A program made the translations under genes and the position numbers. Of a DNA stretch of 6,326 nucleotides, positions 1 through 6,326 are shown piece after piece. The stretch lies in the IMG/VR virus record IMGVR_UViG_2690316345_000003, positions 1 to 6,326 of that record; one strand, given 5' to 3'. Source of the DNA: a virus. Its lineage: Duplodnaviria > Heunggongvirae > Uroviricota > Caudoviricetes. The notes under the pieces are model-generated. The model had not been told where the DNA came from and made no database searches. It saw nothing but the letters and a program-made list of their open reading frames with translations. Positions within the stretch are counted from its first letter, which is position 1. Each line of letters begins with the position of its first letter.

Positions 1-115
1 CCTGGCACGGCTGGGACGGAAGTCGCTGTCGTTCTCAAAATCGGTGGAGCTGCATGACAAAGTCATCGGGCATTATCTGAACATAAAACACTATCAATAA
101 GTTGGAGTCATTACC
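1..115 (+). mobile_element. IS1: IS1 insertion sequence, right (3') end only; the window begins inside the element
   Basis: Positions 1-115 match the IS1 right end as I recall it (…CTGGCACGGCTGGGACGGAAGTCGCTG…AAGTTGGAGTCATTACC), ending in the terminal inverted repeat (reverse complement GGTAATGACTCCAACTTATTGATAGTG). Identification is from memory of the IS1 sequence, not a search. Confidence 0.9.
2..100 (+). CDS. insB: IS1 transposase InsB, C-terminal fragment (5' end lies outside the window)
   Basis: Frame 2 translates to [32 protein letters not shown] with stop TAA at 98-100, which matches the InsB C-terminus as I recall it. Confidence 0.8.
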
Positions 116-332
116 CACTCCCACAAACAAAATCATTCCGGGCGATGGGCGCACTCTGGTTGTTCGCTTCGACAAATTCGGCAACGTCGAATTCACTGAA
201 ACCGTTCCTGATGGCGCTCTCGTCTGTACCCTGGACACTTTCCGCCTTTATCTGGAGAAACAGGGCTGGACTCTTGTAAACCGAAGCGCAATTAAAAATA
301 TGACCGTCGAGCAGTTGCTGAGTATTAAATAG
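116..332 (+). pseudogene. 3' fragment of an unidentified protein-coding gene, apparently 5'-truncated at the IS1 junction
   Basis: An open frame runs from inside IS1 to TAG at 330-332 (…PTNKIIPGDGRTLVVRFDKFGNVEFTETVPDGALVCTLDTFRLYLEKQGWTLVNRSAIKNMTVEQLLSIK*). There is no in-frame ATG or ribosome-binding site between the IS1 boundary and residue KNM. Codon choice looks coding and the segment is more GC-rich than the AT-rich kilR/ydaE/racC genes downstream. I do not recognise the protein. Confidence 0.4.
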
Positions 333-378
333 TTTTCTGGAATTTTCTTAATACGAGAAATTTATTAAGGAGATAATT

Positions 379-600
379 ATGATTGCTCATCACTTCGGAA
401 CTGATGAAATACCACGTCAGTGTGTGACTCCTGGCGATTATGTTCTTCATGAAGGCCGGACATATATCGCCTCGGCAAACAATATTAAAAAGCGAAAACT
501 TTATATTCGTAGCCTGACTACAAAAACATGCATTACTGACTGCATGATTAAAGTCTTCCTCGGTCGTGATGGTTTACCTGTAAAGGCGGAGTCATGGTGA
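379..600 (+). CDS. kilR: KilR, Rac prophage cell-division (FtsZ) inhibitor, 73 aa
   Basis: ATG at 379 is preceded by AAGGAG at 368-373. The product [73 protein letters not shown] matches KilR of E. coli K-12 as I recall it in length and near-identical sequence. Confidence 0.85.
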
Positions 601-770
601 TGACTAAGAAAATAAAATGTGCTTACCACCTTTGCAAAAAAGACGTTGAAGAAAGCAAAGCTATTGAAAGAATGCTTCACTTCATGCACGGGACTTTATC
701 AAAAGACGAACCGAGAAAATATTGCAGTGAAGCTTGTGCCGAAAAAGACCAGATGGCACACGAACTTTAA
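600..770 (+). CDS. ydaE: YdaE-like small Cys-rich (putative zinc-binding) Rac prophage protein, 56 aa
   Basis: Not in the ORF track because it is under 60 aa. ATG at 600-602 overlaps the kilR stop (ATGGTGATGA). Translation is [56 protein letters not shown] with two cysteine pairs (C-x4-C … C-x3-C). It matches my recollection of YdaE. Confidence 0.75.
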   Translation: MTKKIKCAYHLCKKDVEESKAIERMLHFMHGTLSKDEPRKYCSEACAEKDQMAHEL

Positions 771-843
771 TTAATTGACTATTCGAAACTGAATTTATGC
801 CAGCAATGGCAGGGATTCGCTCAACCTTAATTAAGGAGAAAAA

Positions 844-1120
844 ATGATTACCAGTTATGAAGCCACTGTTGTAACTACCGATGACATTGTTCACGAGGTT
901 AATCTGGAAGGAAAGCGTATTGGCTACGTGATTAAAACAGAAAATAAAGAAACCCCCATTCACTGTGGTTGATATCGATGGTCCATCAGGCAACGTAAAA
1001 ACACTTGATGAAGGTGTCAAAAAAATGTGCCTGGTGCATATCGGAAAGAATCTGCCCGCAGAAAAAAAAGCCGAATTTCTGGCAACTCTGATTGCAATGA
1101 AATTAAAAGGTGAAATCTGA
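844..1120 (+). pseudogene. racC: racC interrupted by a +1 frameshift in a C5 homopolymer (953-957); would be 91 aa if intact
   Basis: AAGGAG at 834-839 precedes ATG at 844. Frame 1 gives MITSYEATVVTTDDIVHEVNLEGKRIGYVIKTENKETPIHCG* with stop at 970-972. The next frame is open from 932 and reads …PFTVVDIDGPSGNVKTLDEGVKKMCLVHIGKNLPAEKKAEFLATLIAMKLKGEI* with stop at 1118-1120. Removing one C from the CCCCC run restores a continuous 91-aa product matching RacC as I recall it. Confidence 0.7.
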
Positions 1121-1125
1121 AAGAA

Positions 1126-1150
1126 ATAGCCTGCGTATGGCGCAGGCTAT
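1126..1150 (+). promoter_or_regulatory. Perfect 10-bp inverted repeat (stem-loop) in the racC-recE intergenic region
   Basis: ATAGCCTGCG (1126-1135), loop TATGG, then CGCAGGCTAT (1141-1150), which is the exact reverse complement. No U-tract follows, so it is not a canonical intrinsic terminator. It lies about 70 bp upstream of the recE start. Confidence 0.5.
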
Positions 1151-1220
1151 GAACAGTGTGTATCCGGCAAGATTATTCACTGAACAAACGAATTTTAATC
1201 TGAGTTGAGGTTAAAAAACA

Positions 1221-3968
1221 ATGAGCACCGATAAACAAGTTTACCCACTGTATTACGAAGCAAAAAATGACAAAGTAAGAAAACGTCTCGGTATTAAAGG
1301 CGGTTTCTACTGGACTGAAGCGAAAAAATTATCCATTGCCATATCCCGTGGTGCTGTTGCTATTGACGATGCTGGCTACGATGAAGATGACTTTAAAAAA
1401 CCCGTTCGCGTAAATTTCCCCGTCGTGAATGACCTTCCACCGGAAGGCGTGTTTGATACTGAATTCTGCAACCGCTATGAAAAAGGCGGGGAAGATGGCA
1501 TCACCATGATGGCTATATCCTTCAATGACAACATCAACGGTGAAGATGCCACAACTGCTGGCGATGACAACGATGACCCGGACGGAACTATTCCGGATGA
1601 TGTGGAGAAAAGCGAATCCCCGGACAGCGACGATGACTGTTCTGAGTGTGAAATTCCCGTCGCCACTCTGAGCCTTACTCATCGCTTCCTTCACCTCTTC
1701 TTCTTCAGCAAGGATGAAGATGGAAAATACCGGCATCACGCCACACCAGAACAACGCAATAACGTGATCCGTATGGAGATGGACACAGAGGACAGTTACC
1801 TTCAGAGCCTGCTTACTGCTGTGCGCGCCGCACATCATGAACTGGATAAACTGACGAACTATCACCTTAGTCGCCTGGCTGAATCTGTAGGGAAAGCATT
1901 CCCCCACTCTGCAAATCATCGCATCAGCCCGGCTGAATTCGACAAGTTCATTTCCACCTGGATGAAAACTGACTACCTTGATCAGGGCCTGCTGACAAAA
2001 GAATGGCAGAACGGAAATTATGTTTCAGGAATTACCCGTACGCCTTCCGGTGCTAACGCTGGCGGCGGAAATATTACCGATCGTGGTGAAGGATTCAAAC
2101 ATGATAAGACATCACTCGCACGAGATGTAGCCACCGGCGTTCTGGCCCGTTCAATGGATGTGGATATTTATAACCTTCATCCGGCACACGCTAAACGTGT
2201 CGAGGAAATTATCGCTGAAAATAAACCGCCCTTTTCTGTTTTCCGCGACAAATTCATCACCATGCCTGGCGGGCTGGATTATTCCCGCGCCATCGTGGTT
2301 GCGTCCGTAAAAGAAGCACCAATTGGGATCGAGGTTATCCCTGCGCATGTCACTGAATATCTGAACAAGGTGCTGATTGAAACCGATCATGCCAACCCTG
2401 ATCCGGAAATCGTGGATATTGCCTGCGGTCGTTCCTCTGCCCCGATGCCGCAGCGTGTAACAGAAGAAGGAAAACACGATGGTGAAGAAAAACCGCAACC
2501 ATCTTGCGCAATGGCAGATAAACAGGCAACGGCTGAAACAGTGGAACCGGATGCAACTGAACATCATCAGGACACGCAGCCGCTGGATGCTCAGTCACAG
2601 GTAAATTCTGTTGATGCGAAATATCAGAAACTGCGGGCAGAACTCCATGAAGCCCGGAAAACCATTCCGCCCAAAAATCCTGTCGATGCCGACAAATTGC
2701 TGGCTGCCTCTCGCGGAGAATTTGTTGAAGGGATTAGCGACCCGAATGATCCGAAATGGATTAAGGGGATCCAGACCCGCGATTCTGTGTACCAGAATCA
2801 GCCAGAAACGGAACAGAACGACCAGAAAGCGGAACAGAACAGCCCAAATACGCAACAAAACGAGCCAGAAACGAAACAACCTGAACCAGTAGTGCAACAG
2901 GAACCGGAAAAGATCTGCACCGCCTGCGGCCAGAGGAGTGGCGGCAACTGCCCTGATTGTGGCGCGGTGATGGGCGACGCAACATACCAGGAAACATTCG
3001 ATGAAGAGAATCAGGTTGAAGCTAAGGAAAATGATCCGGAGGAAATGGAAGGCGCTGAACATCCGCACAATGAGAATGCTGGCAGCGATCCGCATCGCGA
3101 TTGCAGTGATGAAACTGGCGAAGTCGCAGATCCCGTAATCGTAGAAGACATAGAGCCAGGTATTTATTACGGAATTTCGAATGAGAATTACCACGTAGGT
3201 CCCGGTGTCAGTAAGTCTCAGCTCGATGACATTGCTGATACTCCGGCACTGTATTTGTGGCGTAAAAATGCCCCCGTGGACAACACAAAGACAAAAACGC
3301 TCGATTTAGGAACCGCTTTCCACTTCCGGGTACTTGAACCGGAAGAATTCAGTAACCGCTTTATCGTAGCACCTGAATTTAACCGCCGTACAAACGCCGG
3401 AAAAGAAGAAGAGAAAGCGTTTCTGATGGAATGCGCAAGCACAGGAAAAACGGTTATCACTGCGGAAGAAGGTCGGAAAATTGAACTCATGTATCAAAGC
3501 GTTATGGCTTTGCCGCTGGGGCAATGGCTTGTTGAAAGCGCCGGACACGCTGAATCATCAATTTACTGGGAAGATCCTGAAACAGGAATTTTGTGTCGGT
3601 GCCGTCCGGACAAAATTATCCCTGAATTTCACTGGATCATGGACGTGAAAACTACGGCGGATATTCAACGATTCAAAACCGCTTATTACGACTACCGCTA
3701 TCACGTTCAGGATGCATTCTACAGTGACGGTTATGAAGCACAGTTTGGAGTGCAGCCAACTTTCGTTTTTCTGGTTGCCAGCACAACTATTGAATGCGGA
3801 CGTTATCCGGTTGAAATTTTCATGATGGGCGAAGAAGCAAAACTGGCAGGTCAGCTGGAATATCACCGCAATCTGCGAACCCTGGCTGACTGCCTCAATA
3901 CCAATGAATGGCCAGCTATTAAGACGTTATCACTGCCCCGCTGGGCTAAGGAATATGCAAATGACTAA
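1221..3968 (+). CDS. recE: RecE (exonuclease VIII), 915 aa, 5'-3' dsDNA exonuclease with a C-terminal PD-(D/E)XK nuclease domain
   Basis: GAGG at 1207-1210 precedes ATG at 1221 and a single long ORF follows. From about residue 255 onward the protein closely matches E. coli RecE as I recall it (…GLLTKEW…ANAGGGN…DRGEGF…ARSMD…[12 protein letters not shown]…). The C-terminal domain carries a PD-(D/E)XK signature (RPD at 3609-3611; MDVK at 3639-3650). A C-x2-C-x7-C-x2-C motif lies at 2916-2960. The stop overlaps the recT start. Confidence 0.9.
2791..2910 (+). repeat. Imperfect short tandem repeats (CCAGAAACGGAACAGAAC-like) encoding a Q/E/N/P-rich linker within recE
   Basis: GCCAGAAACGGAACAGAAC (2801-2819), CCAGAAAGCGGAACAGAAC (2823-2840) and GCCAGAAACGAAACAAC (2864-2880) encode [38 protein letters not shown]. 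The antisense track ORF 2595..3194 is a by-product of this repetitive stretch. Confidence 0.5.
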
Positions 3969-4770
3969 GCAACCACCAATCGCAAAAGCCGATCTGCAAA
4001 AAACTCAGGGAAACCGTGCACCAGCAGCAATTAAAAATAACGACGTGATTAGTTTTATTAACCAGCCATCAATGAAAGAGCAACTGGCAGCAGCTCTTCC
4101 ACGCCATATGACGGCTGAACGTATGATCCGTATCGCCACCACAGAAATTCGTAAAGTTCCGGCGTTAGGAAACTGTGACACTATGAGTTTTGTCAGTGCA
4201 ATCGTACAGTGTTCACAGCTCGGACTTGAGCCAGGTAGCGCCCTCGGTCATGCATATTTACTGCCTTTTGGTAATAAAAACGAAAAGAGCGGTAAAAAAA
4301 ACGTTCAGCTAATCATTGGCTATCGCGGCATGATTGATCTGGCTCGCCGTTCAGGTCAAATCGCCAGCCTGTCAGCCCGTGTTGTCCGTGAAGGTGACGA
4401 ATTTAATTTCGAATTTGGCCTTGATGAAAAGTTAATACACCGCCCAGGAGAAAACGAAGATGCCCCGGTTACCCACGTCTATGCTGTCGCAAGACTGAAA
4501 GACGGAGGTACTCAGTTTGAAGTTATGACGCGCAAACAGATTGAGCTGGTGCGCAGCCAGAGTAAGGCTGGTAATAACGGGCCATGGGTAACTCACTGGG
4601 AAGAAATGGCAAAAAAAACGGCTATTCGTCGCCTGTTTAAATACCTGCCTGTCTCAATTGAAATCCAGCGTGCAGTATCAATGGATGAAAAGGAACCACT
4701 GACAATCGATCCGGCAGACTCCTCTGTATTAACCGGGGAATACAGTGTGATCGATAATTCAGAAGAATAA
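3961..4770 (+). CDS. recT: RecT single-strand annealing protein (RecT/Redβ family), 269 aa
   Basis: ATG at 3961 lies 8 nt after an AGGA core (3949-3952). The track's upstream extension from 3904 is rejected because ATG 3955 is only 2 nt from that core. The product [36 protein letters not shown]… matches E. coli RecT as I recall it. The start overlaps the recE stop in ATGACTAA. Confidence 0.9.
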
Positions 4771-4777
4771 TTCAGCC

Positions 4778-4798
4778 TGGCGGTGTAATGCACCGCCA
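4778..4798 (+). terminator. GC-rich 8-bp stem-loop just downstream of recT; possible weak terminator or RNA-stabilising hairpin
   Basis: TGGCGGTG (4778-4785), loop TAATG, then CACCGCCA (4791-4798), a perfect inverted repeat. A TTTTT run follows only after a 12-nt spacer (about 4811-4815), so the terminator assignment is weak. Confidence 0.35.
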
Positions 4799-4826
4799 AC
4801 GCGAGACAGTTTTTATGACAAAAATT

Positions 4827-5021
4827 ATGAGATATGACGATGTTAAACCATGTCCGTTTTGTGGTTGTCCATCTGTTACGGTGAAAGCAATTTCAGGATA
4901 TTACCGGGCAAAATGCAACGGATGCGAATCCCGAACTGGCTATGGTGGAAGTGAAAAAGAAGCACTCGAAAGATGGAATAAACGAACTACTGGAAATAAT
5001 AATGGAGGTGTTCATGTATAA
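4827..5021 (+). CDS. ralR: RalR/Lar restriction-alleviation protein, 64 aa, Cys-rich zinc-finger-like
   Basis: Translation from ATG 4827 is MRYDDVKPCPFCGCPSVTVKAISGYYRAKCNGCESRTGYGGSEKEALERWNKRTTGNNNGGVHV*, which matches Rac RalR (Lar) as I recall it, with a C-x2-C … C-x2-C motif. No strong Shine-Dalgarno sequence is present; in-frame ATGs at 4788 and 4815 are possible but less consistent with the known protein. Confidence 0.8.
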   Translation: MRYDDVKPCPFCGCPSVTVKAISGYYRAKCNGCESRTGYGGSEKEALERWNKRTTGNNNGGVHV

Positions 5022-5202
5022 AATAACTGCCACTATTGAAAAAGAAGGTGGCACTCCTACTAACTGGACAAGATATTCAAAATCTAAATTAACGAAATCA
5101 GAATGCGAAAAAATGCTCTCAGGGAAAAAAGAAGCAGGCGTGTCCAGAGAGCAGAAAGTAAAGCTGATAAATTTTAATTGCGAGAAACTTCTGTCCTCGT
5201 GA
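5014..5202 (+). CDS. ydaC: YdaC-like small Rac prophage protein of unknown function, 62 aa
   Basis: GGAGG at about 5003-5007 lies 6 nt before ATG 5014. Translation is MYKITATIEKEGGTPTNWTRYSKSKLTKSECEKMLSGKKEAGVSREQKVKLINFNCEKLLSS*. The start overlaps the ralR stop (ATGTATAA). The track's start at 4942 is rejected in favour of the ribosome-binding-site-supported ATG. Confidence 0.65.
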   Translation: MYKITATIEKEGGTPTNWTRYSKSKLTKSECEKMLSGKKEAGVSREQKVKLINFNCEKLLSS

Positions 5203-5257
5203 GTTGCATTATATACAAATTAGAACTTCATAGCTGATTATTAAAAATCAACCACAC

Positions 5258-5286
5258 CCGCCAGTATTCTGTATATTTACTGGCGG
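5258..5286 (+). promoter_or_regulatory. Perfect 9-bp inverted repeat with an 11-nt AT-rich loop upstream of xis; candidate operator or RNA structure
   Basis: CCGCCAGTA (5258-5266), loop TTCTGTATATT, then TACTGGCGG (5278-5286), the exact reverse complement. It sits in the AT-rich ydaC-xis gap directly upstream of the xis ribosome-binding site (AAGAGG at about 5296-5301). No U-tract follows. Confidence 0.45.
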
Positions 5287-5302
5287 TCATATCGTAAGAG
5301 GT

Positions 5303-5590
5303 ATGGCAATGAATCTTGTGACACTCAAAACGTGGGGAAAACTCAGATATCCGGATAACCCACCATCAATATCAACGCTGAGACGATGGGCAAGGAATGG
5401 AAACATTTATCCTGCACCTGAACTACACGGGAGGAGTTACAGGGTGGTTCCGGAAGCTTTCTATATCAACCCCAATAAGGTTGATACCGATATAACACAC
5501 CATCAGCCTAATGGGCGACAAGGGAGAGACAGTCCGTTACTGGAGAAGTTAAAACATGCAGCGGAAAAAATACGATCCCAATTTGCCTAA
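5303..5590 (+). CDS. xisR: Excisionase (Xis family), Rac XisR-like, 95 aa
   Basis: The product MAMNLVTLKTWGKLRYPDNPPSISTLRRWARNGNIYPAPELHGRSYRVVPEAFYINPN… has the lambda Xis pattern (…TLxxW…S.xT.RRW.R…P.P…GR.Y…). It sits immediately upstream of the integrase and overlaps it by 35 nt, as in lambda xis-int. An alternative start at ATG 5309 is possible. Confidence 0.7.
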   Translation: MAMNLVTLKTWGKLRYPDNPPSISTLRRWARNGNIYPAPELHGRSYRVVPEAFYINPNKVDTDITHHQPNGRQGRDSPLLEKLKHAAEKIRSQFA

Positions 5591-6200
5591 AAACTTAACA
5601 TATCGAAGGAGGGACAAAGCATATTACTGGCGCAACCCTCTGACGAAAGAAGAATTTACACTAGGTAAAATTTCAAGAAGAGATGCAATCGCGCAGGCAA
5701 TTGAAGCAAATCACTATATATACAAAAACTACTCTACTGCTGCCTTAATTGAAAAACTTAAAGGGTTCGACTCATTTACTATGGCAGACTGGATTGAACG
5801 TTACAAAACGATTCTTATAAGGAGAAAAGTGTCCAGAAATACTTATAAAATTCGGGTAAATCAACTGGAGACAATAAAAGAAAAATTGGGAGAGATTTTA
5901 CTGACAGAAATAACCACTCGCCATATTGCCGAGTTTCTTGATTTGTGGATTGAAGGAGGGAAAAACACAATGGCAGGATCAATGCGTTCTGTGTTGTCTG
6001 ATATGTTTCGTGAGGCCATTGTTGAAGGACGTATATCTCAAAATCCAGTAACGCCAACAAGAGCACCGAAAATAGTAGTTACAAGAGAACGACTGAAACT
6101 AAAGACATACAACTGCATCAGGGAGGCAGCAGATCAACTTCCGGCATGGTTCCCATTAGCTATGGATTTAGCCCTTGTAACAGGACAACGTCGCGAAGAC
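5556..6200 (+). pseudogene. intR: Lambda-family tyrosine integrase, N-terminal 215 codons only, truncated by IS1 insertion
   Basis: GGAG at 5543-5546 precedes ATG 5556. The product aligns with the lambda Int N-terminal and core-binding domains (…LSDMFREAIVEGRISQNPVTPTRAPK…AWFPLAMDLALVTGQR versus lambda …LSDAFREAIAEGHITTNHVAATRAAK…CWLRLAMELAVVTGQR). The frame then runs straight into IS1 at 6201 and stops at 6227 after eight IS1-encoded residues. The catalytic-domain residues downstream of that Arg, including the Tyr nucleophile, are absent from the window. Confidence 0.85.
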
Positions 6201-6326
6201 GGTGATGCTGCCAACTTACTGATTTAGTGTATGATGGTGTTTTTGAGGTGCTCCAGTGGCTTCTGTTTCTATCAGCTGTCCCTCCTGTTCAGCTACTGAC
6301 GGGGTGGTGCGTAACGGCAAAAGCAC
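6201..6326 (+). mobile_element. IS1: IS1 insertion sequence, left (5') end only; the element continues beyond the window
   Basis: GGTGATGCTGCCAACTTACTGATTTAGTGTATGATGGTGTTTTTGAGGTGCTCCAGTGGCTTCTG… is the IS1 left terminal inverted repeat and the start of insA as I recall them. It is in the same orientation as the copy at 1-115. Confidence 0.9.
6256..6326 (+). CDS. insA: IS1 InsA, N-terminal fragment (3' end lies outside the window)
   Basis: From the GTG start at 6256 the frame reads (M)[23 protein letters not shown]…, the known InsA N-terminus with its C-x2-C motif. Confidence 0.8.
   Translation, partial: [23 protein letters not shown]

Follow-up and report, generated by a model that had tools for sequence, protein, structure and literature searches.

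A Rac-like recombination arm between two directly oriented IS1 ends in an Escherichia coli draft contig, probably the result of two IS1 insertions into a decaying prophage

Two described systems are among the closest to the locus analyzed here. One is the Rac prophage of Escherichia coli K-12, which is located at ttcA and has the gene order intR-xisR-rcbA-ralR-recT-recE-racC-ydaE-kilR. The other is the transposon Tn9, in which direct repeats of the insertion sequence (IS) IS1 flank cat. Tn9 is the classical IS1 pair, and IS1 pairs around 7.5-41 kb of chromosome were transposed as units in laboratory evolution (PMC12065110). The window, as the whole analyzed stretch of 6,326 nucleotides (nt) is called here, corresponds to positions 1 to 6,326 of the IMG/VR virus record IMGVR_UViG_2690316345_000003. 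It contains a Rac-like recombination block between two IS1 ends. We consider it probable that two strain-specific IS1 copies of the same orientation reside in the genes rha and int of a decaying Rac-like prophage. The window is a whole short-read contig. The four features that make up the two junctions are as follows, with an annotated full-length IS1A copy (L005:901-1668, 768 bp) as the IS1 reference:

1-115, plus strand: IS1 right end at the contig start, corresponding to IS1 positions 654-768 and 100% identical to L005:901-1668
116-332, plus strand: 3' remnant of rha (Rha-family phage regulator), last 72 codons and stop, equal to L001 6002-6218
5556-6200, plus strand: 5' part of the tyrosine integrase gene int, 215 of 358 codons, equal to L001 11442-12086
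6201-6326, plus strand: IS1 left end at the contig end, corresponding to IS1 positions 1-126 and 100% identical to L005:901-1026

Both ends align to IS1A with zero mismatches and on the same strand, and the characteristic terminal inverted repeats are present (left GGTGATGCTGCCAACTTACTGAT..., right ...ATCAATAAGTTGGAGTCATTACC). The segment at 1-115 contains the 3' end of insB' together with the right inverted repeat, which ends in ...GTTGGAGTCATTACC; that at 6201-6326 has the left inverted repeat, followed by insA from its GTG at 6256 through codon 23. The alignment bears out the original prediction, which had placed an IS1 right end at 1-115 and an IS1 left end at 6201-6326 of one strand. It had also correctly quoted the adjoining 9-mers, CACTCCCAC at 116-124 and CGCGAAGAC at 6192-6200. 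The former lies in the rha piece and the latter in int, and they are the presumed target-site copies of the left and the right IS1, respectively. A chance match to IS1 can be dismissed because IS1-annotated elements that match the 126-base end occur in 4963 of 5426 complete E. coli genomes, at a median of 10 places per genome. The shared orientation of the two copies has a prior of 50% and is unremarkable on its own.

Between the two IS1 ends lie 6085 bp that have uninterrupted relatives. Window 115-6200 is found in one piece, with 100% nt identity, in the chromosomes of strains O45:H2 FWSEC0003 (NZ_CP031916.1) and O111:H8 8E (NZ_CP077465.1), and it shares 99.9% identity with strain 2014C-3061. 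In FWSEC0003 and 8E, the prophage DNA continues unbroken past both breakpoints. The gene order in these relatives is Rha (282 amino acids (aa)), kilR, ydaE, racC (frameshifted), recE (915 aa), recT, ralR, rcbA/ydaC, excisionase and integrase (358 aa), followed by yebY-copD-yobA-holE. The likeness includes the frameshift in racC, which must be older than the IS1 events because the identical DNA of the relatives carries it as well. What distinguishes FWSEC0003 and 8E from the window is that they have intact rha and int genes and are devoid of IS1 at either site. The window carries the early-left arm (kil, recombination and excision-integration functions) of a Rac-like lambdoid prophage, which in close relatives is found beside yebY.

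The two relatives themselves differ in the completeness of the prophage. In 8E, the prophage to which the arm belongs is a more complete lambdoid one that also has ydaF, repressor-like genes, ydaT and replication genes, all upstream of the arm. In FWSEC0003, it is a remnant that is short upstream of rha and lies beside a frameshifted nleC pseudogene (L001 3972-4959 and 5370-6218, compared with L002 1-5000). The same prophage decays differently in these sister lineages.

Two insertions are favored because the segment is colinear, the IS1 repeats are direct and the breakpoints lie inside two genes; this points to two separate IS1 events in what was once the ancestral prophage. That both breakpoints fall inside genes (rha and int), with the DNA between them colinear with an intact prophage, supports this reading. 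Two separate full-length IS1 copies would have been inserted independently, each with its own duplication of 8-9 bp. IS1 is reported to generate duplications of this size, and insertions less than 10 kb apart are not rare (PMC12065110). A close pair is not particularly improbable: by our own estimate, which assumes 10 random copies in 5.3 Mb, about 0.1 IS1 pairs are expected within 6.1 kb. IS1 insertions in dispensable prophage DNA are preferentially tolerated. What is new is this lineage-specific pair of IS1 junctions, while the kind of arrangement is already known and ordinary.

The right IS1 interrupts int behind codon 215, directly past the ...LVTGQRRED motif, and the open reading frame (ORF) reads into IS1, where it ends with a stop codon at 6225-6227. 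The truncated integrase retains only the domains Arm-DNA-bind and Phage_int_M, while the catalytic domain (PF00589) falls in the missing C-terminal part. A tyrosine recombinase that is missing its catalytic part cannot catalyze excision. Because the whole sequence past the box-I arginine region is missing, the integrase is predicted to be dead, and the prophage remnant would be unable to excise by site-specific recombination. The arm would likewise be severed from its upstream early promoter. This would be one more way for a Rac-like prophage to be locked in place and to decay, with IS1 knocking out both the integrase and a regulator.

The edges of the window are those of a draft contig. A search for exact copies of the integrase-IS1 fusion ORF (5556-6227) led to contig CYCA01000098.1 (6326 bp) of the E. 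coli draft assembly GCA_001285045.1, which matches over the range 1-6326 and is therefore the entire window. The int'::IS1 fusion protein has been deposited as CTW40669.1 ("integrase [Escherichia coli]"). The same fusion occurs in a 3237-bp Logan contig from run ERR137800, which stops about 28 bases into IS1, and the protein is found on only three short contigs. Since these two contigs stop within IS1, the window edges are edges of short-read contigs. No literature was found for ERR137800, GCA_001285045 or CYCA01. Multi-copy IS elements complicate short-read assembly and are a standard cause of contig breaks (PMC4558774). The window begins and ends with IS1 because IS1 is multi-copy and the short-read assembler stopped there; it would have halted about 115-126 bases into each IS1 copy. 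Any unique stretch of DNA that lies between two copies of IS1 would look like this, with IS1 at both ends. A whole draft contig that has IS ends at its two edges bears the signature of repeat-limited assembly and is silent on the DNA beyond; the window by itself cannot show what lies across either IS1. As a side observation, the Logan contig L004 starts inside recE.

The junctions are rare. When 100-base queries centered on each junction were searched in the 5,426 complete E. coli genomes, with the requirement that a place covers at least 80% of the query, neither IS1 junction was found in any of them. Among these genomes, the inner block occurs only in its colinear prophage context and without adjoining IS1, and a second genomic context of the IS-bounded block was not encountered among them (0 of 5,426 with either junction). 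The IS1 junctions are recent, lineage-specific events. In phage records, the module is shared at about 95% identity at most.

Disrupted integrases of this type are known from other lineages. The 90% cluster of the truncated integrase has 229 members, among them many partial or interrupted integrases from Shigella sonnei, S. boydii and S. dysenteriae, which suggests that the same integrase has repeatedly been disrupted by IS elements in Shigella. The break after codon 215, however, is exclusive to the lineage described here (three contigs). The truncated copies of the integrase family from Shigella include the proteins P0062-P0074 and P0020, the last of which has a foreign C-terminal tail.

An independent case of IS1 in such a module was encountered in isolate F1022 (NZ_OY754357.1; L007 9679-10376). 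Here, in another Rac-like prophage, which is integrated by ompW, a full-length IS1A copy separates kil from the exonuclease gene and has the same orientation as the operon. Because of this independent copy, IS1 insertions in this module can be considered recurrent.

A pair of simple insertions makes predictions for the outer sides of the two IS1 copies. On the left, the sequence ...CAGAATAATAC-CACTCCCAC (likewise ...GCCAGAATAATAC CACTCCCAC) would be joined to the IS1 left end GGTGATGCTGCC. On the right, the IS1 right end ...GAGTCATTACC would be joined to CGCGAAGAC-ATAACGAATATGCGG, and an ORF for the integrase C-terminus would start from the first ATG past the junction (MRFSD..., 140 aa). This predicted fragment of 140 aa was found exactly (P0076, from Logan and ENA; two contigs, the longest with 5400 bp), so that a simple insertion is compatible with the findings for the right side. 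When this fragment served as the query of a protein search, only other partial integrases were returned. A 76-aa junction ORF starting in IS1 is not on record, and neither GTDB species genomes nor JGI metagenomes contained the exact DNA patterns of the outer junctions, with duplications of 6-12 bp allowed.

Several points weigh against two simple insertions. P0076 is listed from Logan and ENA and not from the NCBI assembly, and the same protein would result from any break shortly before its start codon. On the left side, 16 fusions of the Rha N-terminus to IS1 were predicted (duplications of 7-14 bp, six start codons), and none is present in the protein collection; when the fusion was searched for, only ordinary Rha proteins and partial ones from contig edges were returned. 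This mildly hints that the left IS1 may not represent a simple insertion, in which the remainder of rha would directly follow on its far side. In addition, we infer rather than observe that the IS1 copies are of full length (768 bp, with insA and, through a programmed -1 frameshift, insB'), that each has its own target duplication, and which DNA lies across them.

The strongest alternative, which we regard as possible though doubtful, builds on these points. One or both IS1 junctions would then be endpoints of an IS1-mediated adjacent deletion or of homologous recombination between IS1 copies instead of simple insertions. The 6.1-kb arm would be an island with unrelated DNA across IS1, and the remainder of rha, of int or of both would be missing or located elsewhere. 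The outcome for the Rha fusions (0 of 16) speaks for this alternative, as the proteins of the assembly are contained in the collection and the search gave nothing beyond ordinary and contig-edge Rha proteins; the fusion protein could, however, also be absent owing to a single-nucleotide polymorphism, to another gene call or to a contig that breaks within rha. IS1-promoted adjacent deletions are a classical process, and the FWSEC0003 prophage, being already a short remnant upstream of rha, indicates that the region is prone to decay. On the other hand, the C-terminal integrase fragment that would follow from a simple insertion at the right site is on record in its exact form. Another route was rejected as the origin of the pair. 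Intramolecular replicative transposition results in deletions or in inversions between inverted repeats, and would not give direct repeats around a colinear segment. In situ independent insertion, IS1-mediated rearrangement and composite transposition are not formally separable.

The original prediction had emphasized a layout of directly repeated IS1 as in Tn9, which might allow the block to move as a unit or to be lost by IS1-IS1 recombination. The layout itself holds, with same-strand IS1 ends around 6.1 kb, while there is no sign of movement. With its direct IS1 repeats, the 6.1-kb block has the formal layout of a Tn9-like composite and could undergo IS1-IS1 deletion, as any nearby IS1 pair is a potential composite transposon or deletion substrate. 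This potential is legitimate, but the block has no second context, and a modeled IS1-IS1 deletion product (the N-terminal part of rha, one IS1 and the C-terminal part of int) is absent from the 5,426 complete genomes. The likeness to Tn9 and other IS1 composites consists of same-strand IS1 ends around a block of less than 10 kb, with inner IS1 termini that are intact to the last base. The window covers these inner ends only. In contrast to Tn9, the block has neither a second location nor a selectable cargo, is placed as in the ancestral prophage, and is seen from its inner ends alone.

That this is an active composite whose copy in the window has transposed to a new site, or is also present at one, with kilR-recET-ralR as cargo, is therefore improbable. 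In favor are the direct repeats around a block below 10 kb, and the precedents of Tn9 and of the 7.5-41 kb chromosomal segments that were moved by IS1 pairs in laboratory evolution (PMC12065110). Against it stands that, in complete genomes, the block is known only from the colinear prophage context with no IS1 alongside, and that the junctions are restricted to about three short contigs. Both inner breakpoints are in prophage genes, as expected at the place where the pair first formed. In a comparison with the plasmid database, the inner block was not found on genuine plasmids. The best "plasmid" matches, a 1.4-Mb record and a 47.7-kb phage-like element, have about 95% identity and lack this layout; such matches are mislabeled chromosome pieces or a phage-plasmid.

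A functional role is rated as very unlikely. In one version, an IS1-kilR-recET-ralR/RalA-xis-IS1 composite would move a complete RecET module and a type I toxin-antitoxin pair between replicons; in the other, the left IS1 would alter the expression of the normally silent kilR-recET operon in an sbcA-like manner. Should movement of the block be demonstrated, a mobile RecET module would be moderately interesting with regard to how recombination functions spread horizontally. That IS1 activates recET in an sbcA-like manner is pure speculation. When the left IS1 junction was scanned for promoters, the IS1 end had no promoter-like site; the single site detected (348-377) was below shuffle expectation, and IS1-driven expression was dropped beyond that speculation.

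The least probable reading, for which we see hardly any room, is that the two ends are a single IS1 on a circle of 6,853 bp (6,085 + 768 bp), either a product of IS1-IS1 excision or a small replicon: the ends are indeed non-overlapping, complementary parts of IS1, and a loop on a collapsed IS1 node looks identical in the assembly graph for a circle and for a segment between direct repeats, but all ORFs are early-left prophage genes (Rha', KilR, YdaE, RacC', RecE, RecT, RalR, RcbA, Xis, Int'), neither a replication initiator nor a plasmid origin is present in the window, a circle that does not replicate would not attain assembly-level coverage, and none of the plasmid-database matches is a circle of 6.9 kb. 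A small plasmid was rejected, there being no replication gene among the ORFs of the window.

The remaining features between the two IS1 ends are:

379-600, plus strand: kilR (FtsZ inhibitor), intact, 73 aa; Pfam KilR; 95.9% aa identity to K-12 KilR
600-770, plus strand: ydaE (zinc-binding protein), 56 aa; Pfam YdaE; 98.2% identity to K-12 YdaE
844-1120, plus strand: racC pseudogene; the frameshift results in ORFs of 42 aa and 51 aa (844-972 and 965-1120)
1221-3968, plus strand: recE (exonuclease VIII), 915 aa; Pfam Exonuc_VIII and DUF3799; 74% identity to K-12 RecE
3961-4770, plus strand: recT (single-strand annealing protein), 269 aa; Pfam RecT; 98.5% identity to K-12 RecT
4827-5021, plus strand: ralR (type I toxin, endodeoxyribonuclease), 64 aa; Pfam Lar_restr_allev; 98.4% identity to K-12 RalR
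5014-5202, plus strand: rcbA/ydaC (DUF1187), 62 aa; Pfam DUF1187; 98.4% identity to K-12 RcbA
5020-5198, minus strand: RalA antitoxin small RNA (sRNA), antisense within rcbA; Rfam RF02694, 219 bits compared with a gathering threshold of 170, full length (1-179)
5309-5590, plus strand: excisionase, 93 aa; Pfam Exc; no BLASTP match to K-12 XisR

The gene content that had been read from the letters alone agrees with the Pfam labels and with the annotation of the identical DNA, but the rha piece at 116-332, upstream of kilR, had been overlooked. Its counterpart in FWSEC0003 (L001 6002-6218) is the end of a 282-aa coding sequence of the Rha family (WP_000935592.1). The racC gene is annotated as "frameshifted" also in the identical DNA of FWSEC0003 (L001) and 8E (L002). 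RecE has 915 aa, compared with 866 aa in K-12, and the divergence is located in the N-terminal two thirds. Within a linker rich in Q, E and P, recE has an imperfect tandem repeat of 21 bp (7 codons) in about 3.8 copies (2793-2879). A type I toxin-antitoxin system is represented by ralR and the antisense RalA that overlaps rcbA, and this RalR/RalA pair is intact inside the IS1-bounded block.

The designation as a Rac-type block is appropriate from kilR through rcbA, where the gene order is the same as in K-12 Rac, but it does not extend to the flanks. Nucleotide identity to Rac from K-12 MG1655 is 97.7% for window 369-1228 and 93.3% for window 1963-5252. The core module (kilR-ydaE-racC-recE-recT-ralR-rcbA) is thus present with high identity; KilR, YdaE, RecT, RalR and RcbA are 96-98.5% identical, and the RalA sRNA is found as well. 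The window differs from K-12 Rac by its longer RecE with 74% identity, the frameshift in racC and the Rha-family gene upstream of kilR. When compared with the MG1655 Rac region at the nt and protein level, the rha piece, xis and int had no counterpart. The window has neither the intR/xisR module nor the ttcA attachment site by which Rac is integrated; in the relatives, this prophage type is located beside yebY, whereas K-12 Rac is at ttcA. As judged from these comparisons, the core of the window is a Rac-like recombination module in a different integration cassette. The occurrence of xis and int genes (window 5309-6200; L001 11195-12518) that are unrelated to xisR and intR, beside a module with 93-98% identity to Rac, is an example of the modular exchange of an integration cassette.

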